A stretch of 64,000 bases of DNA from a virus. Of this stretch, positions 2,429 to 25,455 are shown piece by piece. Made by a program: the position numbers and the translations under genes. The stretch covers positions 96,001-160,000 of IMG/VR virus record IMGVR_UViG_3300032287_003559; one strand, given 5' to 3'. The number at the start of each line of letters is the position of its first letter. Position 1 is the first letter of the stretch. The notes under the pieces are model-generated. The model worked only from the letters and a program-made list of their open reading frames with translations, was not told where the DNA came from and made no database searches.

Positions 2429-3518
2429 TTATCTAATCATTGGATGTGGATTATTTGGAGCAACATTTGCAAGACTTGCTACTGATAATGGTAAGTCTTG
2501 CTTAATAATTGATAAAAGAAAACATATTGGTGGAAATTGTTATACTGAAAATGTAGAAGGTATTAATGTTCATACGTATGGAGCGCATATTTTTCATACA
2601 AGTAATAAAACTGTTTGGCAATTTGTGAATAGATTTTCTGAATTTAATAATTATATCAATTCACCAAAAGCTGTATCTAATAATGGGAAGTTATATTCTC
2701 TTCCCTTTAATATGAATACTTTTTATGAATTATGGGGAACTAGATCGCCTGATCATGCTAAATCGATTATCGAAAGTCAAAAATTTAAAGGTACTCCAAC
2801 TAATCTGGAAGAGCAGGCATTATCTTTAGTTGGAAAGGATGTTTATGAAACTTTAATTAAAGACTACACTGAGAAGCAATGGGGAAGACCTGCTAAGGAA
2901 CTTCCCACCTTTATTATTAAAAGACTTCCATTAAGATTTACTTTCGATAATAATTATTTCAATGATAAGTATCAAGGTATACCGATTGGCGGTTATACTA
3001 AGATGTTTGAAAAAATGATTGATGGTATTGAAGTTAAGTTGGAATCTGATTATTTTTCTGATAAAGATTATTTTGATTCATTAGCAAGCACTGTAGTTTA
3101 TACTGGTTGTATTGATGAATTCTTTGATTATGAGTATGGAGAACTTGAATATAGATCTTTAAAATTCGTTCAGGAAATCATGGATACTGACAATTATCAG
3201 GGAAATGCAGTTATTAATTACTGTGAAAAATATCCTAAACAAACTAGAACAATAGAACATAAACATTTTGAAAGATCTAACACCAATAAGACAGTAGTTA
3301 CCTTTGAGTATCCTGAAACATATTCAAAAGAAATGATTCCATATTATCCAGTCAACGATGAAACAAATCAAAAAGTTTACAAAAAATATCAAGAAAAATC
3401 AAAAATGTTGACTAATGTTATATTTGGCGGTAGACTAACCGAATATAAGTACATGGATATGCATGTTGTAATTGAATCTGCAATGAACAAATTTAAAACA
3501 CATAACGGAGTAGTATGA
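2415..3518 (+). CDS. glf: UDP-galactopyranose mutase
   Basis: GCGLFG FAD motif, HIGGNCY, YGAHIFHT, YTEKQWG, PYYPVND, GRLTEYKYMDM. Confidence 0.96.
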   Translation: MKHYDYLIIGCGLFGATFARLATDNGKSCLIIDKRKHIGGNCYTENVEGINVHTYGAHIFHTSNKTVWQFVNRFSEFNNYINSPKAVSNNGKLYSLPFNMNTFYELWGTRSPDHAKSIIESQKFKGTPTNLEEQALSLVGKDVYETLIKDYTEKQWGRPAKELPTFIIKRLPLRFTFDNNYFNDKYQGIPIGGYTKMFEKMIDGIEVKLESDYFSDKDYFDSLASTVVYTGCIDEFFDYEYGELEYRSLKFVQEIMDTDNYQGNAVINYCEKYPKQTRTIEHKHFERSNTNKTVVTFEYPETYSKEMIPYYPVNDETNQKVYKKYQEKSKMLTNVIFGGRLTEYKYMDMHVVIESAMNKFKTHNGVV

Positions 3519-4255
3519 GAATAGCTTTATGTTTATCTGGGCAACCAAGATTTGTCACTGAGTGTGCCCCATACATTTTACAAAATGTTTGTGATGGATA
3601 TGATGTTGATGTTTTTGCACATACTTGGTTTGATGAAGATCTTTTGAATAGACCATATAAAGTTGAAAATAATTGGCCATCGCAAAGAATATCTCCGGAC
3701 GCAGTTAAACAGATAGAGGAGATATATAAACCGATTTCACATAAAGTGGAATCTAGTATGAACTTTAAAGATCCAAATATTGATTATTCTATCTCTTGGC
3801 CAAGATATTGTGGATGGGGAGAACAAACTGAAGAATTTTATAGATTTGTGATTAGTAATCAAATTTCATATTTTTACAGTTTGAATCAGGTTAATATGCT
3901 AAAAAAACACTATGAGTATAAAAATGGATTTAAATATGATTGGGTAGTTAAGTGTAGAACGGATTCTATTGTACAAACCAAAATCGAATTTGAAAAATAT
4001 GATCCAAATGTAATTAACTATACTGGAATTAATAATCAACCAGATGGAATGATTTGTGATTGGTTTGATTTTGGTGGATCAAAAGTTATGGATGTATTCA
4101 TGAGTGCTTTTTCTGTATATGATTTTCCACTCAAAAAATGTATTGATGAGAACAATGGTGCATTTTGTCCAGAATTAATTCATCGAAAAATGATTGATTT
4201 TTTTGGTATAGATAAACAGGCACATCCAATCTACATTTCTTTACCTAGATTCTAA
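3515..4255 (+). CDS. putative glycosyltransferase (xIALCLSGQPR family)
   Basis: N-terminal IALCLSGQPR, DVFAHTW, YDWVVKCRTD; paralog of 9385..10107. Confidence 0.55.
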   Translation: MRIALCLSGQPRFVTECAPYILQNVCDGYDVDVFAHTWFDEDLLNRPYKVENNWPSQRISPDAVKQIEEIYKPISHKVESSMNFKDPNIDYSISWPRYCGWGEQTEEFYRFVISNQISYFYSLNQVNMLKKHYEYKNGFKYDWVVKCRTDSIVQTKIEFEKYDPNVINYTGINNQPDGMICDWFDFGGSKVMDVFMSAFSVYDFPLKKCIDENNGAFCPELIHRKMIDFFGIDKQAHPIYISLPRF

Positions 4256-4263
4256 TATTAAAT

Positions 4264-4977
4264 ATGAATATTCTTATACCAATGGCTGGTGAGGGAACAA
4301 GATTTCCTAGAGACACCTATAAAATCCCAAAGCCATTAATTGAAATAAATGGAGTTCCAATGATTCAAAGAGCAATAGAATCTTTGGGATTAACTGGAAC
4401 ATACCATTTTGTGATTAGAAAGGATAGTTATTATGATCAGGTATGTACGCTTTTACATTCAATCTTTCCGAATGTAAAAATTATCAGCGTAGAACAAACA
4501 ACAGAAGGTCCAGCATCAAGTTGTCTTTTGTTTAAAGATTTTATCAATAATGAAGAAGAGTTGGTCATTGCTAACTGTGATCAGATTATGTGGTGGGATG
4601 CAGATTTATTTCTTACCACTGCTAGGTATTATAAGTATGATGGTTTAGTAGTAACCTATAGTACAAATACCACAAAAAACAGTTACGCAAGAATTGATAA
4701 AAGTGGATTTGTGCAAGAAATTAAAGAAAAAGAAGTTATAAGTGATATTTCACTGAATGGAATTCATTATTGGAGAAAGGGTAAATACTTTGTGCAAAGC
4801 ACCGAAGATATGATACAATTTAATGATAGAGCACCTAATGGCGAATTTTATGTTGGACCTTCATATAATCATATGATTAAAAGAGGATTAAAAGTTGGAA
4901 TTCATCATATTCCTAACTGGCAGCATAATCCAGTAGGAGTTCCTGAAGATTTGGATTCATTTATGAAAAAACTATGA
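4264..4977 (+). CDS. sugar-phosphate nucleotidyltransferase
   Basis: ILIPMAGEGTRF...PKPLI, ANCDQ, EK, NGEFYV..YN motifs of the NTP_transferase family. Confidence 0.85.
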   Translation: MNILIPMAGEGTRFPRDTYKIPKPLIEINGVPMIQRAIESLGLTGTYHFVIRKDSYYDQVCTLLHSIFPNVKIISVEQTTEGPASSCLLFKDFINNEEELVIANCDQIMWWDADLFLTTARYYKYDGLVVTYSTNTTKNSYARIDKSGFVQEIKEKEVISDISLNGIHYWRKGKYFVQSTEDMIQFNDRAPNGEFYVGPSYNHMIKRGLKVGIHHIPNWQHNPVGVPEDLDSFMKKL

Positions 4978-5300
4978 ATATAACTAAAATTACAGATTAT
5001 GTGCGTGGATGGTTCATTGGTAACTTTGAACCATCAGTATTGAAAACTCCAGACTTTGAAGTGGGAGTATTGACTCACAAAAAAGATGAGTATTGGGCAC
5101 CCCATTATCATAAAGAAAGTGTAGAATATAATGTTCTTATTTCTGGAAAAATGATAGTTCAGGGAAAGGAGTTAAATAGTGGAGATGTATTTGTATTTGA
5201 GAAAGGGGAAATTGCTGACCCAGTTTTCCTTGAAGATTGTACATTAGTTGTAGTTAAATCCCCATCAATTCCTTCTGATAAATTTGAGGTTGAAAAATGA
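4974..5300 (+). CDS. small cupin-domain protein
   Basis: RGWFIGNFEPS...HYHKESVEYN (HxH-x4-E cupin motif)...GDVFVF. Confidence 0.75.
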   Translation: MNITKITDYVRGWFIGNFEPSVLKTPDFEVGVLTHKKDEYWAPHYHKESVEYNVLISGKMIVQGKELNSGDVFVFEKGEIADPVFLEDCTLVVVKSPSIPSDKFEVEK

Positions 5301-6535
5301 AATTTTTTAGAGAACTAACTGAATACGAAAAGGATCGTTGTGTTGTTGCAACGTATTACATTGAAACATATGAGGATCTTGGAACCCTAAGAGATGCTGC
5401 CTGGAACCTTGCAATCGGGCAGAGTGTGGGTAATCCAAAGGTTCGTAATCGCTGGGAAAGCGATGAGTTGTTTGAACTTGCATCTTGCGTCATTTATGCC
5501 GATGAAGACGAACTCTCCAAAGTTAATTCTGGAGTCGTTAAAATCGGTTTCCCTAAGGTCAATACTGATTGGGAAGGTGATGGTATCTCCCATCTTCTCT
5601 GCCAACTTATGGGTGGACAATTAGATATTGATGTCTTCAAAGTCTGCCGTCTTCAGAAACTGGAGTTTCCTGCCGATGTGGAAGCACAGTTCCTTGGACC
5701 CAAGAATGGTATTGACGGTATTCGTAAGTTTGTTAATCGTTACGACAAACCACTCTCTGGTGCTATTGTGAAGCCCAAGACTGGTATTTCACCACAGACT
5801 CTTGCAGAGATGGTGAAAGAACTTCTTGATGGTGGTGTAGATTTTATCAAAGAAGATGAGATTCTTTCTAATCCTTCATTCTGCCGTCTTGAAGATCGTG
5901 TAGAACTGATTTCTAATATCGTTAATAATTGTGGAAGGAATGTAATTTATACCTTCTGCATTAACGGTGATCATCATACCATTCTTGATCGTGCTAAATT
6001 TGTTGCTGATAACGGTGGAAACGGTATTCATATTAATTTTTGGAGTGGTCTTGGCGTCTATAATTCAGTTAGAAAGATGGATCTCCCACTCTTTATTCAT
6101 TACCAGAAGAGTGGTGACAAGATTCTTACGGATAAGAGACACGCATTCGGTATAGATTGGGATGTTCTTTGTGACCTTGCTGGTCTCTGTGGTGTAGATA
6201 CTATTCACGCAGGAATGTGGGGTGGTTATCTCAGCGATGATGAGAATGAACTTCGCAAAACTATGGAGACTCTTCACAAGCGTAATGTTCTCCCAGCATT
6301 AAGCTGTGGAATGCATCCAGGGATCGTTAACACCACTGCAGAGAAGTTTGGTACAGATTTCCTTGCTAACTGTGGCGGCGCCATTCACGGGCATCCTGGG
6401 GGCACTCTAGCGGGTGCTCTGGCGATGCGTCAGGCAATTGATAAGAATCCTGGTGCAGAGTTCCGTGCCGCAATTGATAAGTGGGGTTATGAAACTGGTG
6501 GCGGTTCTTTACCTGAGTGGGTATTAGATTTTTGA
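5297..6535 (+). CDS. RuBisCO-like protein (form IV RLP)
   Basis: GAIVKPKTG, GGVDFIKEDE, GVDTIHAG, PALSCGMHPG, GGAIHGHPGG..AGA.AMRQA; lacks carboxylation residues. Confidence 0.92.
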   Translation: MKFFRELTEYEKDRCVVATYYIETYEDLGTLRDAAWNLAIGQSVGNPKVRNRWESDELFELASCVIYADEDELSKVNSGVVKIGFPKVNTDWEGDGISHLLCQLMGGQLDIDVFKVCRLQKLEFPADVEAQFLGPKNGIDGIRKFVNRYDKPLSGAIVKPKTGISPQTLAEMVKELLDGGVDFIKEDEILSNPSFCRLEDRVELISNIVNNCGRNVIYTFCINGDHHTILDRAKFVADNGGNGIHINFWSGLGVYNSVRKMDLPLFIHYQKSGDKILTDKRHAFGIDWDVLCDLAGLCGVDTIHAGMWGGYLSDDENELRKTMETLHKRNVLPALSCGMHPGIVNTTAEKFGTDFLANCGGAIHGHPGGTLAGALAMRQAIDKNPGAEFRAAIDKWGYETGGGSLPEWVLDF

Positions 6536-6536
6536 T

Positions 6537-7016
6537 ATGAAAATTATATCTCATCGTGGGAACCTAACTGGACCAAATCCCCTTAAAGAAAATAGTCCTG
6601 ATTATATCGAAGAAGCGATTGCCGAAGGTTTTGATGTTGAGGTTGATCTAAGAGTCCAAGATGGTCAATGCTATCTTGGACATGATGATCCTCAATACTT
6701 TGTAACTATGGAATGGTTGAGAAAGTATAAAGATATTCTCTGGATTCATTGTAAAAATCTAGAAGCACTTGAAAAAATATCAAGTTCTGTGGTAGAATTT
6801 AACTACTTTTGGCATGATACAGATAGATATACTTTAACGAGTAAGGGGATTGGGTGGGTATTAGTAGGACAATATCCATATTCAAAATCCGTAGTTGTTC
6901 TGCCAGAAAAGATAGATTTATATACCTTTCCTCACGGGATTGAATATATAAAAAGCAGTTATGGAATCTGTACTGATATTCCATTTAAATATAAACAAAA
7001 AATAACGGAGAATTGA
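6537..7016 (+). CDS. short glycerophosphodiester phosphodiesterase (GDPD)-like protein
   Basis: ISHRGN, ENS, DVEVD, LGHD, WIHCKN, GICTD. Confidence 0.75.
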   Translation: MKIISHRGNLTGPNPLKENSPDYIEEAIAEGFDVEVDLRVQDGQCYLGHDDPQYFVTMEWLRKYKDILWIHCKNLEALEKISSSVVEFNYFWHDTDRYTLTSKGIGWVLVGQYPYSKSVVVLPEKIDLYTFPHGIEYIKSSYGICTDIPFKYKQKITEN

Positions 7017-7019
7017 CTA

Positions 7020-7661
7020 ATGAAATGGGAAACTGATCTGATTAAAGACATTAGAAGTAATACGCCATATGATGATACTGAGGCTGGTATAAATCATTTT
7101 CTTCATATTTGGCCTGGAATTGAGAATGATCCTGGTGTACTGAATCCATATGATGGAACTGAATGTAGTGAGTGTAATAAAGAAGCACTTCTTCAACAAT
7201 TCCTAAAAGTTCGTGATAACTGTAATGCGATTCTTGAAATTGGAATTGGTAGAAATGGAGAGAACTCCTTTGCTCACGTATTCTTTAAGAATAAAAAAGA
7301 AGAAACCAAATATATTGGTATTGATATAGAAGATCGTAGTTGGTTGGTAGATTATGGTGACAATATCTACACTATCCAAGGAAGTAGTTCCAATTATGAT
7401 GAGAATGTTGAGATTTTCAAAACCATGGGAGTAGAAAAATTTGACTTTATTTTCATTGATGGAGATCATAGCGTAAATCAAGTACTACGTGATTGGGAAT
7501 ACTCACGCCTCTTGAATGATGGTGGTATTGTTGGATTCCACGATACAAGTCATCACACTGGACCATATCTATTTGTAAGAAATCTGAACAGAGATATTTG
7601 GGATGTTATTGATAATTCTTGCCCACAAGATTACGGAATTGGATTTGCTACTAAAAAATAA
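7020..7661 (+). CDS. class I SAM-dependent methyltransferase (Methyltransf_24-like)
   Basis: ILEIGIG, IGID, DFIFIDGDHS, GGIVGFHD. Confidence 0.85.
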   Translation: MKWETDLIKDIRSNTPYDDTEAGINHFLHIWPGIENDPGVLNPYDGTECSECNKEALLQQFLKVRDNCNAILEIGIGRNGENSFAHVFFKNKKEETKYIGIDIEDRSWLVDYGDNIYTIQGSSSNYDENVEIFKTMGVEKFDFIFIDGDHSVNQVLRDWEYSRLLNDGGIVGFHDTSHHTGPYLFVRNLNRDIWDVIDNSCPQDYGIGFATKK

Positions 7662-7664
7662 ATT

Positions 7665-8666
7665 ATGAATGACCTTGAAGCACTAAAATCAAAATATAAG
7701 GTTGTTGTTTGGGGATTCAAACCAGTAAACGGAGTATTTCAAAATACTATCGGTTATGTCTGGAATAGTTTTTATAGAGCTTTTCAGACATTGGGGTTCG
7801 AAACCTACTGGTTCCCTAACCAAAAGGTAGAAGGATTTGACTTCTCTAATTGTATTTTCTTAGCAGAGGGATATGATGATTCAGAAATACCTCTAAACAA
7901 AACTTCAATTTATTATGTGCATTGTGCATACAATCCACAAAAGTATGTTAACAATGTTGGTAAATTTGTTGACTTGAGGTATAACCAACTAAAGATGAAT
8001 CATCCAAATTACATGTTTGAGTTGGATAAAAAAAATACCGAAAAATTGGGGAAAAGTTGTTATTATGAACCATCTACTAATCAAGTAGTTCATTTCAAAA
8101 ATGGTAAAGTAGATTATAATATCGATGATTTTGATAAAGTTTATGTTGCTTGGGCAACTAATTTGATGCCTGATGAAATGGATGAAAATGACATCTATTT
8201 GGAAAGAGAAGATAATGTTTACTTTCTTGGAACAGTTTATTATGATGCTCCATATTCAAACGTAAGTGAAATTAGTGAGTTTGCTCAAGAATGTCAAAAA
8301 AATAACATCGGATTCATTGTGAATGAATTTGAAAGAAATCAACTTTCCGAAGAGGATTATATCCAAATTTCAAAAAAATCTCTTTTTGGATTTGATATTA
8401 GAGGTAAATCTAATGTGGAAACTGGATATCTTCCTTGTCGGGTATTTAAAAATATAAGTTATGGTCTTCTAGGTACAACAAATTCTCCTGAAATTTATAA
8501 TGAGCTTGATGGTCACTGTGTCTATAACAGTTCCCCATCTAAACTTTTTTATAGTGCAATGAAAAGAAAAGACGATATTGAATTTATTAAAGAGTGTTTT
8601 AATTATGTAAAACATAATCACACATATATCAATCGAGTTAAGAGTATTTTAAGTATTTTAAAATGA
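7665..8666 (+). CDS. putative GT-B glycosyltransferase
   Basis: C-terminal GYLPCRVFKNISYG...HTYINRV resembles CgeB/Glyco_trans_1_2. Confidence 0.55.
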   Translation: MNDLEALKSKYKVVVWGFKPVNGVFQNTIGYVWNSFYRAFQTLGFETYWFPNQKVEGFDFSNCIFLAEGYDDSEIPLNKTSIYYVHCAYNPQKYVNNVGKFVDLRYNQLKMNHPNYMFELDKKNTEKLGKSCYYEPSTNQVVHFKNGKVDYNIDDFDKVYVAWATNLMPDEMDENDIYLEREDNVYFLGTVYYDAPYSNVSEISEFAQECQKNNIGFIVNEFERNQLSEEDYIQISKKSLFGFDIRGKSNVETGYLPCRVFKNISYGLLGTTNSPEIYNELDGHCVYNSSPSKLFYSAMKRKDDIEFIKECFNYVKHNHTYINRVKSILSILK

Positions 8667-9382
8667 AGTCATCAAATTTTTTAGTTCATCATCAAGCTCA
8701 TAAAAATAAAGTTGCAACAGAGCATGTTATTAGATCATTTAGAGAATATCACCCAGATGATCCATATGTAATTTGGTCTGATTGTGGTGAAGATTATATT
8801 GATATAGCAGAAAAATATAATACAGATTATTATTATTCCGACTTTAATGTAGGATATATCTATTATGATAAAGAATCTGCATATGAATTATATAATAGAA
8901 TAAGAAAATCATGCGAATTATATAAAGATAAAACGCATGTTCTTTGGATGGAAGACGATGTAATAATCAAAGGTGAAATTTATATTCCAGATGAAGTTGA
9001 GTATTATGGAATGCCAAATATTGGAAACACTTGGCCAGAACTTCATGAATATCTTTGTGAGAAATATAAAGTAAATCCCAACTTTAACTTTTGGTCAACT
9101 GCAGGTGGCGTGATCATGCCTACAGATACTTTTGTAAATAAATTTGATATTTTAGAAAAATTTATTGACGAAGATTATGATCATGTTTACAACAATATGT
9201 GCAAAAAAATTGGTGCTGGAGATATACTAAAAATGGTATCCCAAATAATCACTGGAAAAAATTATACCGTTAATCCGCAAATAACTGATGTTAATCATCC
9301 TACAGGTGTTAGCGATGATATAATTTCAATTGTTCATGGATTCAAGGGGCATTATGTAGAACTTCCTCCTAGAGATAATTGA
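8663..9382 (+). CDS. putative GT-A glycosyltransferase
   Basis: IWSDCG and LWMEDDV motifs; glycan island context. Confidence 0.5.
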   Translation: MKSSNFLVHHQAHKNKVATEHVIRSFREYHPDDPYVIWSDCGEDYIDIAEKYNTDYYYSDFNVGYIYYDKESAYELYNRIRKSCELYKDKTHVLWMEDDVIIKGEIYIPDEVEYYGMPNIGNTWPELHEYLCEKYKVNPNFNFWSTAGGVIMPTDTFVNKFDILEKFIDEDYDHVYNNMCKKIGAGDILKMVSQIITGKNYTVNPQITDVNHPTGVSDDIISIVHGFKGHYVELPPRDN

Positions 9383-9384
9383 TC

Positions 9385-10107
9385 ATGAAAGTAGCATTTT
9401 GTTTTGCTGGACAACCGAGAGATGTAAAAAATACTCTTAATAATATTAAAAAATCTTGGGGAACTCATCAGGAACTAGATTTCTTCTTTCATTCTTGGAT
9501 TCCTGATAGGGAAGGTCCATATAGAATAGACACTCCTTCTGATGTATATACGAAAGATATTAATGATTATATTTTATCTGAACTATCTCCAGTAAAATAT
9601 GAATTTGAAAATCAAATAATTTTTAAAAATTATTATAGAGACTCTATTCATTGGCCAATTCGTAGTTCTAATATTCCAAATCCTTCTCAAAATATCCAAT
9701 CATTTTTTTATTCAATTAAGAGAAGTAATGAACTAAAAAAACAGTATGAGGAAGAAAATAATTTTAAGTATGACTGCGTAATTCGTTGTAGATTTGACTA
9801 TTTGTTTACGAAGATCTATAATATTAGAGATTTTGATTTAAATTATTTGAATGTAAAAAATGATTGCAAGCATACTCCGTATGCAATCAACGATCACATT
9901 GCATTATCAAATAGTGAGAATATGGATTTGTATTCAACAGTATTTGATAATATTCAAGAACACTATAAAAACGGTATTGAATTTAATACAGAAGTTATTC
10001 TTGGATATAATGCTTTTATTAATGGATTAAAATATCACAAAACTTTAGGTGATAATAATGAATCCTATGTTTCAACACAAAAGGAAAGATCTGGAATTTA
10101 TATATGA
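9385..10107 (+). CDS. putative glycosyltransferase (paralog of 3515..4255)
   Basis: KVAFCFAGQPR, FFFHSW, YDCVIRCRFD, INDH. Confidence 0.55.
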   Translation: MKVAFCFAGQPRDVKNTLNNIKKSWGTHQELDFFFHSWIPDREGPYRIDTPSDVYTKDINDYILSELSPVKYEFENQIIFKNYYRDSIHWPIRSSNIPNPSQNIQSFFYSIKRSNELKKQYEEENNFKYDCVIRCRFDYLFTKIYNIRDFDLNYLNVKNDCKHTPYAINDHIALSNSENMDLYSTVFDNIQEHYKNGIEFNTEVILGYNAFINGLKYHKTLGDNNESYVSTQKERSGIYI

Positions 10108-14436: not shown

Positions 14437-15909
14437 ATGAAACTCAAACAACTGATGCTTGCACCTGTTGCTCTTGGAATGATTGCTCCTGCTGCTGCGA
14501 ATGCGGCAGATCTGAATATGGCAGCAGTCAATCAATATTCTACGGAACAGGTCACAAGCGTCTCACAATTCTCTGATGTAAAGCCTACCGATTGGGCATA
14601 TCAGGCACTCAGCAACCTCGTAGAGCGTTATGGTTGCGTTGCTGGATATCCTAACGGCACCTTTGGTGGTGGTAAGGCAATGACCCGCTATGAGGCAGCA
14701 GCACTTCTGAATGCTTGCCTCGATCGTGTGACTGAAGTTACCGATGAACTCAAGCGTCTTCAGAATGAATTCTCACAAGAACTCGCTGTTCTTCGTGGTC
14801 GTGTTGATGCTGCTGAGGCACGTATCGGTCAACTGGAAGCAACTCAGTTCTCCACCACTACTAAACTGCGTGGTGAAGCAACCTTCGTTCTGGGTGGCGT
14901 TCCTGGTTATGATACCAAGACTGATGTAAGCACTCGTACTGCTTTCAACTATGATGTTCGTCTGAACTTTGATACTTCGTTTACTGGTAAGGATCTGCTC
15001 CGTACCCGTCTGCGTTCTTCTAACTTCAGTGCTGATCCTTTTGGTTCGTCTTCCTCCCTGTTCAAACTGGACAAGGCTGATAACACCCAATCGGAAACTG
15101 GCGATAACGTAGTGATTGATCGTCTCTACTATTCGTTCCCTGCTCTGAACAACCGTGCAACTCTGACCCTTGGTGCTAAGGTCCGTAACACCGAAATGGC
15201 TTGGTTGCCTACTGCATACAAGTCGGAAGTTCTTGACTTCTTTGCTGTTGCTGGTGCTCCTGGCGTTTATAACAAGGCAACTGGTGCTGGTTTCGGTGCT
15301 CTGTGGAGTCAAGGTAAGACTGGTTTCGTTGCTGGTGTAAACTATGTTGCTCAAAAGGGTGACGACAGCGAAACTGGTGTCTTTGATGAAACCAGCGGTC
15401 TGAACACTCTGGCACAAATCGGTTACCGTGGTAAGAACTGGGGTATCGGTGCTGGTTACCGTTATGGTACTGAAGGTACTCGTGTTCGCACCTACAACGG
15501 TCTGAATGGAGCTGGTGGTACTCTGGTTCCTGGTCAAACCTCTAATGGTTATGCCGTGAACGCATACTGGCAACCTACTAAGTCTGGTATCGTTCCTTCC
15601 ATCTCTGCTGGTTATGGTTGGAACACCGTGAGTGGTACTGCAAGTGCTGCTACCGATAGTCAGTCGTGGTTTGCTGGTCTCCAGTGGGCAGATGTACTTG
15701 CTAAGGGCAACTCTGCTGGTATTGCTATCGGTCAAGCACCTACGGGCGAAGACCTTGAGGCAGCAACGATGCTTGAAATCTTCTACAAGTATCAAGTTTC
15801 GGATAACATTAGTATCACTCCTGCGATCTTTTACGCAAGTGATAATCAACGCCTGATTGGTGATGCCTCTAAGTGGGGTGGCGTGATCCAGACCAAGTTT
15901 ACGTTCTGA
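14437..15909 (+). CDS. cyanobacterial Som-type outer-membrane porin (SLH + OprB-like barrel)
   Basis: Signal peptide; SLH motif FSDVKPTDWAYQAL..LVERYGCVAGYP; FSTTTKL.GE; C-terminal F. Confidence 0.93.
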   Translation: MKLKQLMLAPVALGMIAPAAANAADLNMAAVNQYSTEQVTSVSQFSDVKPTDWAYQALSNLVERYGCVAGYPNGTFGGGKAMTRYEAAALLNACLDRVTEVTDELKRLQNEFSQELAVLRGRVDAAEARIGQLEATQFSTTTKLRGEATFVLGGVPGYDTKTDVSTRTAFNYDVRLNFDTSFTGKDLLRTRLRSSNFSADPFGSSSSLFKLDKADNTQSETGDNVVIDRLYYSFPALNNRATLTLGAKVRNTEMAWLPTAYKSEVLDFFAVAGAPGVYNKATGAGFGALWSQGKTGFVAGVNYVAQKGDDSETGVFDETSGLNTLAQIGYRGKNWGIGAGYRYGTEGTRVRTYNGLNGAGGTLVPGQTSNGYAVNAYWQPTKSGIVPSISAGYGWNTVSGTASAATDSQSWFAGLQWADVLAKGNSAGIAIGQAPTGEDLEAATMLEIFYKYQVSDNISITPAIFYASDNQRLIGDASKWGGVIQTKFTF

Positions 15910-15912
15910 TAA

Positions 15913-17220
<1,308 letters not shown>

Positions 17221-24003: not shown

Positions 24004-24044
24004 CATCAACAAGTTAAGAAATGTAACTGTTCTTAATGTTGTCC

Positions 24045-24145
24045 TCTTCCTAACCGAGACCTATGGGGAGGTTAAACACAGTCTCTCATATCCACACTGG
24101 AGGGTGGTGTGGAGCATACTGATACCTGTTCGTCCCCCCGAACTT
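24045..24145 (+). ncRNA. PhotoRC-II-like structured psbA leader RNA
   Basis: CCTAACCGAGACCTATGGGG...GTCTCTCATATCC...GAGGG...GGA arrangement (GAGAC/GTCTC pairing) in the psbA 5'UTR. Confidence 0.65.
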
Positions 24146-24164
24146 CTATCTAACACTCTTACAA

Positions 24165-25455
24165 ATGACTGCTTCAATTGCTCAACAACGACAACTTAAT
24201 ACTTGGGACCAGTTCTGTGACTGGGTTACTTCAACGAACAACCGACTTTATGTTGGTTGGTCGGGAACTATTATGATTCCGTGTCTTCTTGCTGCTACTG
24301 CATGTTTTATTCTTGCATTTATCGCAGCACCGCCGACAGACATTGATGGAATTAGGGAACCAGTTGCTGGTTCTCTTATGTGGGGAAACAATATTATCTC
24401 TGGTGCTGTTGTTCCTTCGTCCAATGCGATTGGACTACACTTTTATCCAATCTGGGAAGCACAATCTCTAGATGAATGGGCATATAATGGAGGTGAATAC
24501 CAACTCATTGTTTTCCACTTCCTTATTGGTATTTGGATGTATGCTATGCGAGAGTGGGAACTCTCTTATCGTCTTGGTATGCGTCCATGGATTTTTGTTG
24601 CCTATTCTGCTCCTGCTATTGCTGCAACTGCCGTATTTCTCCTTTATCCAATTGGACAAGGAAGTTTTAGTGATGGTATGCCTCTTGGTATTTCTGGAAC
24701 CTTTAACTTTATGCTTGTATTCCAAGCAGAGCACAACATCTTGATGCACCCATTTCATATGATGGGAGTTGCGGGTGTATTTGGTGGTGCCTTTGCTGGA
24801 GCAATGCACGGTTCTTTGGTTACTTCTTCACTTGTTCGTGAGACGACTGAAACTGAATCTCAAAACTATGGATATAAGTTTGGTCAGGAAGAGGAAACAT
24901 ATAATATTGTTGCTGCACACGGATATTTCGGTCGTTTGATTTTTCAATACGCATCATTTAATAACTCCCGTTCTCTGCACTTCTTTCTTGCTGCACTTCC
25001 AGTAATTGGTATTTGGTTTACTTCTCTTGGTATTGCTACTATGAGTTATAATCTTAACGGATTTAATTTTGTTCAAAGTATTACTGATCACCAGGGACGA
25101 GTAATTAAAACCTGGGCAGATGTGCTAAATGGGGCAAATCTTGGAATAGAAGTAATGCATGAGCGTAGATTTGGGTATTGCGTTCTTTAAATCGGATGAA
25201 TTGCTGGAAACCCCAAGTGGGCAATCAGCAGCCAAGTCCAAAGTACACTTTGGAAAGGTTCAGAGACTACCTGAGGAATAAAGTTTCCTTAATAACAGGC
25301 ACGAGCGTCCGACACCAGAAATGGTGATGATATAGTCCAATCCTGGTAGTAATACCAGAAAACCAAAGGAATAAAAGAATGCCCATAATTTTCCTTTGGA
25401 CCTTGCATCAGTTGAAGCAACTCCTGTTGCCTTGACTGCTCCAACCATCGGGTGA
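24165..25455 (+). CDS. psbA: photosystem II D1 (exons 24165-25166 and 25378-25455; 359 aa spliced), highly divergent
   Basis: D1 sequence to ...EVMHER, resuming [10 protein letters not shown]...APTIG after the intron. Confidence 0.97.
25167..25377 (+). mobile_element. group I intron (211 nt) after psbA codon 334
   Basis: Exon ends in U and intron ends in G. IGS GGGTATTGCGTTC pairs with exon-1 GAGCGT (P1) and exon-2 AATGCCC (P10). Core elements AATTGCTGGAAA, AATCAGCAG, GTTCAGAGACTA, GATATAGTCC. Confidence 0.95.

Follow-up and report, generated by a model that had tools for sequence, protein, structure and literature searches.

A RuBisCO-like protein with a remodelled, conserved active site is coupled to a nucleotidyltransferase in the glycan island of a cyanophage

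The glycan island and the RLP gene

A stretch of 64,000 nucleotides, positions 96001-160000 of the 175-kb IMG/VR virus record IMGVR_UViG_3300032287_003559 (hereafter the window), harbors a gene for a RuBisCO-like protein (RLP) at positions 5297-6535. The window carries a PhotoRC-II leader, psbA with a group I intron, and tRNAs, and its matches to GenBank phage DNA are weak and exclusively to Synechococcus myoviruses; hence, the window phage is a T4-like cyanophage. The first 14.3 kb form a glycan island of densely packed genes on one strand. The island codes for an fcl-like epimerase, a methyltransferase, UDP-galactopyranose mutase (Glf), two DUF7796 paralogues, a nucleotidyltransferase (NTase), a cupin, the RLP, a 159-aa protein, a second methyltransferase, and glycosyltransferases of the GT4, GT11, GT6, and GT25 families. 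The RLP gene and its immediate partners are as follows:

4264-4977, plus strand: NTase, 237 aa, near-universal partner of the RLP (Pfam NTP_transferase, 3.1e-9)
4974-5300, plus strand: small cupin, 108 aa (weak Cupin_7 and Cupin_2 matches; phrog_24762)
5297-6535, plus strand: RLP, 412 aa, with complete N- and C-terminal domains (Pfam RuBisCO_large, 8.4e-44)
6537-7016, plus strand: mini GDPD-like phosphodiesterase, 159 aa (invariant H6, R7, N19, E35, D37, H49, and D50)

The RLP is translationally coupled to the NTase, the cupin, and the mini-phosphodiesterase, the NTase/cupin and cupin/RLP junctions being 4-nt ATGA overlaps and the mini-GDPD start lying 1 nt past the RLP stop.

Fold and family assignment

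The RLP matched both PF00016 (8.4e-44) and PF02788 and showed the fold of the RuBisCO large subunit, i.e., an N-terminal alpha/beta domain and a C-terminal (beta/alpha)8 barrel. Its AlphaFold2 (AF2) model, built on 58 relatives, had a pLDDT of 94.4, and Foldseek aligned it to Rubisco/RLP structures with a TMq of 0.82-0.86 (form III Rubisco 3a12, 0.85) and to MtnW and Chlorobium RLPs with a TMq of 0.78-0.82. The closest solved structures are form III RuBisCOs (Thermococcus kodakarensis 3a12/1geh, Pyrococcus horikoshii 2cwx, and 8dht), with 27-28% identity and 210 bits as the best match of the family profile in the PDB, followed by MtnW structures with 189 bits. All the named NCBIfam equivalogs for Rubisco and RLP scored the protein far under their cutoffs, namely, type III (203 bits vs. 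497), PRK04208 (196 vs. 438), form II (107 vs. 489), and the MtnW models PRK09549 (168 vs. 409) and TIGR03332 (128 vs. 514). The OiaX model gave 155 bits (E 2.4e-45) against a cutoff of 700. The combination of the RuBisCO fold, substituted carboxylation residues, and a retained P1 phosphate site is that of form IV, and the sequence data support the assignment of the protein as a form IV-type RLP, a predicted non-carboxylase. A tblastn search with the RLP found no match among 50,697 GenBank phage records; all viral RLPs of this family known so far come from contigs of uncultured phages.

Phage RLPs are in themselves already known, as the window RLP, by description, very probably belongs to the "Form IV-like" clade of Jaffe, Castelle, Dupont & Banfield 2019 Mol Biol Evol (PMC6389311), who reported ∼80 non-redundant phage sequences of this kind on IMG/VR contigs, some from Myoviridae. 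These sequences retained some key residues, had diverged from known form IV, and were stated to be of unclear function; Beckwithbacteria also carry such RLPs, and the phage acquisition was placed near DeepYkr (PMC6389311). The window gene resembles them in its myovirus-type IMG/VR contig, its 229 IMG/VR relatives, and its scores under all named RLP cutoffs. However, its nearest solved relatives are form III and MtnW, not DeepYkr, and the coupling to NTase, cupin, and GDPD, the fusions, the glycan context, and the invariant signature described below do not feature in that paper. Novel groups of RuBisCO homologues were also reported from GOS. IV-GOS (Tabita et al. 2007, as given in PMC10173188), a clade of RLPs from ocean metagenomes with no assigned function, is similar by description, the family of the window RLP being abundant in SAR11 and marine phage data.

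Active-site residues

Residues were placed by HMMER pairwise alignments to the form III structures 8dht, 2cwx, and 3a13 and, in a second placement, by a 58-sequence family profile against the same chains. Form III positions were converted to spinach numbering through the well-established conserved motifs AAESSTGTW, GNxFG, KPK, KDDE, IHxHRAMHA, HxGTxxGKL, SGGxH, and GGGxxGHP. The translation of 5297-6535 contains the corresponding segments LAIGQSVGNP, QLMGGQLD, IVKPKTG, FIKEDEI, IHYQKSGD, IHAGMWGGYL, LSCGMHPG, and NCGGAIHGHP. The sites are listed below, with the RuBisCO residue in parentheses:

5417-5446, plus strand: N-domain loop GQSVGNPKVR, with G41 (E60), N46-P47 (T65-W66), and invariant R50
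5615-5617, plus strand: G107 at the N123 position
5765-5779, plus strand: IVKPK, with K159/K161 (K175/K177, retained) and I157 at the T173 position
5849-5860, plus strand: KEDE, invariant, with K185 (carbamylation site K201) and D187/E188 (Mg ligands D203/E204)
6098-6118, plus strand: HYQKSGD, with Q270 (H294), K271 (R295), and D274 (H298), the remodelled P2/hydration site
6206-6232, plus strand: H304 (H327, retained) and loop 6 GGYL, with Y311 replacing K334
6302-6310, plus strand: SCG, with S336 (S379), invariant C337 replacing G380, and G338 (G381)
6374-6382, plus strand: GGA, with G360/G361 (G403/G404, P1 phosphate amides, retained)

Both placements agreed with an earlier by-eye alignment of this protein (the sequence-only reading), which had K175/K177, K201-D203-E204, H327, S379, and G403/G404 retained; these positions are identical in form III RuBisCO, and G381 is also kept (G338). 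The substitutions that it proposed were likewise found, i.e., H294->Q270, R295->K271, and K334->Y311, together with the loss of E60 and N123, both of which are Gly in the RLP (G41 and G107). H294 and K334 are hence not retained. Six further changes were absent from the sequence-only reading: T65->N46, W66->P47, T173->I157, H298->D274, G380->C337, and G405->A362. In comparison with form III, E60, T65, W66, N123, H294, R295, H298, K334, and G380 are thus all replaced.

In RuBisCO, the residues K334, E60, N123, and H294 polarise CO2 and perform hydration and cleavage, and none of the four is present in the RLP. The carbamylatable Lys and the Mg ligands (K201, D203, and E204) are present together with K175. 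Mg-dependent enolisation without carboxylation would be the natural reading of this residue pattern. The P2-phosphate ligands are changed (R295K, H298D), whereas the P1 glycine amides are retained. The prediction of an enolase without carboxylase activity and with an altered P2 site therefore stands as regards the carboxylation residues, replaced family-wide, and the P2 ligands; the enolisation itself is suggested by the residues. The signature G60/N65/P66/G123/Q294/K295/D298/Y334/C380 provides a simple sequence rule that separates this family from true RuBisCO.

Conservation, selection, and phylogeny

The relatives comprised 80 contigs taken of 229 in IMG/VR and 40 GTDB genome loci. The latter were from SAR11, Crocinitomicaceae, Woese-, Pace-, Nano-, and Micrarchaeota (DPANN), Verrucomicrobia, Elusimicrobia, Azospirillum, Turneriella, three Legionella species, Francisellaceae, and Sphingobacteriales. 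Conservation was evaluated on 60 relatives filtered at <88% identity and extending to ∼35% identity. The signature residues were identical in 58 of the 60, the two exceptions being a broken open reading frame (ORF) and a distant Desulfobacterales protein. Positions invariant in alignment A1 include G41, Q42, N46, P47, R50, G107, K159, K161, K185, D187, E188, Q270, Y311, S336, C337, and G338. The most distant match, on a contig (L128) of a Desulfobacterales metagenome-assembled genome (MAG), shares 31% identity and carries E60, T65, and K334; judged from these residues, it is probably a genuine form III-type Rubisco outside this RLP family.

Comparison with sister phages showed that the RLP has the lowest nonsynonymous divergence of the island (dN 0.03-0.10) at a synonymous divergence (dS) of ∼1.0-1.3, giving a dN/dS of ∼0.03-0.07. 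With the signature kept in 58 of the 60 relatives and the lowest dN of the island, the RLP site is an alternative active site conserved under selection, rather than a product of decay, and the RLP is a distinct, conserved variant.

In the phylogenetic tree, the window RLP was nested in a viral clade, with SAR11 and the other cellular branches outside; the root is a single distant sequence, and the direction of transfer is thus not fixed. Relatives of the RLP were found in cyanobacteria in none of the 40 genome loci, and together with the position in the viral clade this leaves an origin from the cyanobacterial host unsupported. A 4.6-kb contig binned into a Methanobacteriota MAG (L089, WTHI01000081.1) carries the whole cassette, with identities to the window of 76% (NTase), 71% (cupin), 85% (RLP), and 56% (mini-GDPD), and the methyltransferase too. 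It is sister to the seven-sequence cyanophage clade of the window and hence probably a phage contig mis-binned into an archaeal MAG. Ten IMG/VR contigs (L050-L057, L061, and L071) show the SAR11 gene order, i.e., mini-GDPD, NTase, and RLP without cupin, and the three placed in the tree (L050, L051, and L054) group with Pelagibacteraceae genome loci; these contigs may be SAR11 genomic-island fragments or pelagiphage DNA.

Base composition

The RLP gene has a G+C content (GC) of 0.430 and a third-position GC (GC3) of 0.337, as against 0.27-0.34 and 0.17-0.23 in 17 other ORFs of the island, and it uses CGT for 11 of 18 Arg and GGT for 27 of 44 Gly codons. The compositional offset from the AT-rich neighbours that the sequence-only reading had noticed is therefore real. 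The two explanations offered for it, a separate origin or high expression, were not supported. The dS of the RLP, although saturated, equals that of the neighbouring genes, and in 75 of the 77 viral loci and 28 of the 35 cellular ones the RLP has a higher GC than the sequence flanking it; a recent separate acquisition was rejected on these two grounds. In this phage, GC3 reaches its minimum in the virion genes (0.12-0.17), and hence a high GC3 is not this phage's sign of high expression. Moreover, GC1 (0.57) and GC2 (0.38) are raised too, and much of the offset lies at codon positions 1 and 2, thereby reflecting amino-acid content. The GC offset is a property of the gene family, arising from amino-acid content and constraint.

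Partner genes of the RLP

The NTase directly adjoins the RLP in about 80 of 83 viral and SAR11 loci; the cupin is present in 67 and the mini-GDPD in 71 of them. The NTase was also found beside the RLP in most of the 40 genome loci, even where the RLP identity drops to 35%, the cellular pairs occurring in SAR11, DPANN, Verrucomicrobia, Elusimicrobia, Azospirillum, Legionella, and Francisellaceae. The partners also exist as single polypeptides. Protein P0125 is an RLP-NTase fusion, and P0126 (817 aa) is an RLP-NTase-cupin fusion with the RLP signature intact, in which the NTase part shares 30% (E 4e-25) and the C-terminal cupin 44% (E 4e-31) identity with the window proteins. In a third, metagenomic protein (P0127, 724 aa), an RLP of the same family (51% identity), with a loop 6 of the Y334 type, is fused to a C-terminal region of 330 aa with no Pfam match and no similarity to the NTase; this region could represent a transferase or a further partner enzyme.

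A Pfam tally of 150 ORFs near 19 cellular loci showed NTP_transferase (13), GDP-Man dehydratase/epimerase (8), GT2 (6), GDPD (5), LicD (3), and IspD (3), in addition to methyltransferases. In Legionella nautarum, a LicD phosphotransferase adjoins the RLP-NTase pair. Gene coupling, gene fusion, and glycan context are direct observations, as are the fold, the residue pattern, and the purifying selection. The conserved coupling to the NTase, which the sequence-only reading did not pick up, is the main functional clue.

PDB sequence searches gave a sole match for the NTase, the uncharacterised Vibrio pyrophosphorylase 4evw, and no usable match for the cupin or the mini-GDPD. The GDPD catalytic motifs HRG, EN, ExD, and HD are all invariant in the 159-aa protein. 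Its AF2 model had a pLDDT of 95, and the top Foldseek matches were all GDPDs, albeit weak (E ∼1e-2, TMq 0.5-0.64). A cupin search covering 401 alphaproteobacterial genomes returned three strong matches, all adjoining an NTase and two of them in genomes without any RLP; none of the three lay beside a different RLP clade. In one of the genomes searched (G293), a 357-aa ORF (L145:6481-7551) matches the cupin at its C-terminal end (39% identity) and abuts the NTase gene, next to HAD_2 and WavE lipopolysaccharide (LPS) genes, with no RLP detected in the genome.

Related islands with HAD or RibB in place of the RLP

The same island, consisting of GT11, GT6, DUF7796 copies, mini-GDPD, GT4, and GT25, is present in the cultured Synechococcus phages B3 and S-CAM9, and B3 also has homologues of the window ORFs 1493-2428 and 7665-8666. 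The strongly matched island proteins of the two phages (transferases and mini-GDPD) share 55-67% identity with the window. Partners of the RLP, i.e., NTase and mini-GDPD, thus occur in cultured Synechococcus phages; the B3 and S-CAM9 islands contain neither RLP nor cupin. Instead, the NTase homologue carries an HAD_2 domain at its N-terminus in both B3 (L086:5341-6714) and S-CAM9 (L084:5341-6726), and these fusions occupy the position where the window has NTase, cupin, and RLP. In Synechococcus phage S-SKS1 (NC_020851.1 38066-39493; L085:6001-7428), the NTase homologue is fused to a complete 3,4-dihydroxy-2-butanone 4-phosphate (DHBP) synthase, RibB (Pfam E 5e-65); this cultured cyanophage may thus use a four-carbon keto-phosphate donor activated by a nucleotide. 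A neighbour in S-SKS1 annotated as "phosphoheptose isomerase" is HAD/NT5C-like.

Since HAD_2 or RibB is fused to a homologous NTase where the window has cupin and RLP, this pattern suggests that HAD, RibB, and RLP (with or without cupin) can stand in for one another in feeding one NTase family. The chemistry of RibB, like that of RuBisCO, opens with Mg-dependent enediol formation on a ketopentose phosphate.

Other features of the window

Further features of the island and of the adjoining region are as follows:

3515-4255, plus strand: DUF7796 protein (Pfam DUF7796, 7e-8), paralogue of 9379-10107 and candidate island transferase
7020-7661, plus strand: S-adenosylmethionine (SAM) methyltransferase (Methyltransf_24/CmcI-like), often accompanying the cassette
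9379-10107, plus strand: second DUF7796 paralogue

Homologues of the DUF7796 protein at 3515-4255 flank the NTase in phages S-CAM9, B3, and S-SKS1; a PDB sequence search with DUF7796 gave no usable match. At 14437-15909, the phage encodes a carbohydrate porin of the OprB family that has an SLH domain at its N-terminus; its GC of 0.49 and GC3 of 0.39 are the highest of this part of the genome and give it a host-derived look. At 24031-25359, the PhotoRC-II RNA motif lies immediately upstream of psbA, and the group I intron is in the 3' part of the psbA region (Rfam, 95 bits).

Proposed function of the RLP

The RLP is, on balance, probably an active, non-carboxylating enzyme of the RuBisCO superfamily that feeds a nucleotide-activated sugar or sugar-phosphate unit for the phage surface glycan, as read from its residues and gene neighbourhood. 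Regarding the course of the reaction, we infer the enolisation, the substrate class, the order of steps, and the target glycan. A mono-phosphorylated keto-sugar, supplied by host metabolism, would be bound with its phosphate in the retained P1 pocket (G338, G360, and G361). The carbamylated Lys185-Mg2+ centre (D187/E188) and K159/K161 would abstract a proton to give an enediolate. As K334, E60, N123, and H294 are all replaced, this enediolate would not be carboxylated, hydrated, or cleaved and might be resolved by reprotonation, isomerisation, epimerisation, or elimination. The invariant Y311 and C337 are candidate acid/base groups, and Y311 (loop 6), C337, Q270/K271/D274, and N46/P47/R50 would stand in for the carboxylation machinery. 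The product or the substrate of the RLP would be handled by the coupled NTase, with the cupin and the mini-GDPD taking part too, and the activated unit would be attached to the surface glycan by the island transferases. Ribulose-1,5-bisphosphate (RuBP) was considered as the substrate and judged unlikely, given the altered P2 site and given that most organisms carrying the family, such as SAR11 and Legionella, would not be expected to produce RuBP.

A more specific version builds on the first chemistry shared by RibB and RuBisCO. Here, the RLP would enolise a ketopentose (or related) phosphate and eliminate or rearrange it to a deoxy-keto sugar phosphate, from which the NTase would make a keto-sugar phosphate linked to cytidine diphosphate (CDP) or another nucleoside diphosphate (NDP). 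Transferases of the LicD or DUF7796 type would then install a phosphodiester decoration on LPS or capsule, and the mini-GDPD would trim or mature it. In this full detail, the proposal is speculative and has a low probability.

Several points weigh against the proposed function. The enolisation and the substrate are deduced from residue homology, and gene neighbourhood and fusion demonstrate a shared pathway, not an order of steps. H298->D places a negative charge at a phosphate site of RuBisCO, and T65/W66 at the P1 site are also changed, which makes the predicted phosphate geometry uncertain. Two alphaproteobacterial genomes (G060 and G293) have cupin, NTase, and HAD_2 with no detectable RLP; hence, some version of the pathway can do without the RLP, which could yield a donor of another kind. 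Between the window phage and B3, the NTase is the most diverged island protein (40% identity vs. 55-67%). In addition, the phage has no kinase, isomerase, or other obvious substrate-supplying gene; genes of the IF-2B/MtnA, PfkB-kinase, and PNP-type (PNP_UDP_1; MtnP/MtnN) families were not found in it, and therefore the precursor must come from host metabolism.

Alternative explanations

Action of the RLP after the NTase is the only serious alternative among the four considered, and still an unlikely one. The RLP would then enolise an NDP- or CDP-ketose as an epimerase or keto-isomerase. The nucleotide would be accommodated on the N-domain side of the pocket, which E60->G, N123->G, and W66->P would have widened. 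Three bulky residues with which the partner subunit caps the site have become Gly, Gly, and Pro, and the same loop has gained the invariant R50. The cupin, whose fold is common among NDP-sugar epimerases and keto-isomerases, is tied to the NTase even more tightly than the RLP is. The RLP precedes the NTase in the fusions, and gene order varies among loci. However, we know of no member of the RuBisCO superfamily that takes a nucleotide-linked substrate, and the conserved cassette lacks an NDP-sugar 4,6-dehydratase to create the keto group.

Salvage of sulfur or SAM by-products is improbable. By this account, the RLP would be either an enolase like MtnW/YkrW, which acts on 2,3-diketo-5-methylthiopentyl-1-phosphate in Bacillus and Geobacillus (2oej, 2oem, and 2zvi), or an isomerase like the Rhodospirillum DeepYkr. 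MtnW is similarly a non-carboxylating RLP with a carbamylated lysine (KCX)-Mg centre and a single-phosphate substrate, and it is the best match of the family profile among RLPs (189 bits, the next best in the PDB after form III Rubisco; TMq 0.78-0.82). The phage also encodes AhcY at 15967-17220. However, the window RLP remains under both MtnW equivalog cutoffs (168 and 128 bits vs. 409 and 514), and it has the invariant G107 at the N123 position, where a catalytic Lys reportedly acts as the general base of MtnW. As regards the neighbours expected in methionine salvage (mtnA, mtnK, mtnX, and mtnD), the families of MtnA (IF-2B), MtnK (PfkB-type), and MtnP/MtnN (PNP_UDP_1) are absent from the phage, not enriched in the 19 cellular neighbourhoods, and not among the top 25 neighbourhood families. 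DeepYkr is a 5-methylthioribulose-1-phosphate 1,3-isomerase of R. rubrum and R. palustris that passes its product to an adjacent cupin methylsulfurylase, an RLP-cupin adjacency that is the hallmark of the 5'-methylthioadenosine (MTA)-isoprenoid shunt (PMC5893883). The window RLP likewise stands beside a small cupin, and the isomerisation by DeepYkr gives a ketose 5-phosphate, the precursor of 1-deoxy-D-xylulose 5-phosphate (DXP), a plausible kind of substrate for a cytidylyltransferase. In contrast, the window cupin tracks the NTase, not the RLP, accompanying NTase and an HAD enzyme where the RLP is absent, and every context is a glycan cluster, not one of sulfur salvage. No DeepYkr structure was among the best 60 PDB matches of the RLP. 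In apiose catabolism, the 3-oxo-isoapionate-4-phosphate decarboxylase/transcarboxylase RLPs OiaX/OiaT act on a small phosphorylated keto-acid sugar, unlike the window RLP in score (155 bits vs. the cutoff of 700) and in their catabolic context, which is absent from the window.

It is very improbable that the RLP lacks catalysis and serves the NTase as a scaffold or regulatory subunit. Many canonical catalytic residues are lost and the RLP is fused to the NTase in some proteins, but bacterial, archaeal, and phage members all share the carbamate Lys, the two Mg ligands, K175, K177, and the P1 glycines without variation, the same site is lined by new invariant polar residues, and the RLP has the lowest dN/dS of the island.

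A genuine CO2-fixing, form III-like RuBisCO serving as an auxiliary gene of photosynthesis or nucleotide salvage, to which the form III Rubiscos as top sequence and structure matches, the cyanobacterial host, psbA in the phage, and the listing of viral rbcL under photosynthesis in viromics papers (PMC13390420) would point, is hardly credible given that K334, E60, N123, and H294 are all invariantly replaced, the type III equivalog gives 203 bits against a cutoff of 497, no AMP phosphorylase or ribose-1,5-bisphosphate (R15P) isomerase (IF-2B) gene is present, and homologues occur in glycan loci of SAR11, Legionella, and DPANN.

Significance

New in the present analysis are a quantification of the invariant signature, tests of dN/dS and GC by which a separate origin is set aside, and the HAD/RibB/RLP replacement pattern in otherwise homologous cyanophage islands. 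No paper tying an RLP to a nucleotidyltransferase or to glycan synthesis was found in the literature. To our knowledge, the functions assigned to RLPs so far are all catabolic or of salvage (methionine salvage, the MTA-isoprenoid shunt, and apiose or acid-sugar catabolism), whereas the role of the window RLP is most likely anabolic. The family is widespread: hundreds of phage contigs carry it, as do Legionella, DPANN archaea, and SAR11, the most abundant bacterium of the sea. Its genes lie in the hypervariable surface-glycan loci by which phage-host recognition is decided.

In viromics, viral "rbcL" is counted among the auxiliary genes of photosynthesis and carbon fixation (e.g., PMC13390420); such a reading is very probably wrong for this RLP family, and the window RLP probably does not boost photosynthesis. 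If the proposed function is true, a RuBisCO-fold enzyme in nucleotide-sugar synthesis would be a new functional class for a much-studied superfamily. Formation of a deoxy-keto sugar phosphate, if true, would be the first anabolic, glycan-building role of the RuBisCO fold and would point to a new class of nucleotide-activated donor in cyanophages, SAR11, Legionella, and DPANN archaea.

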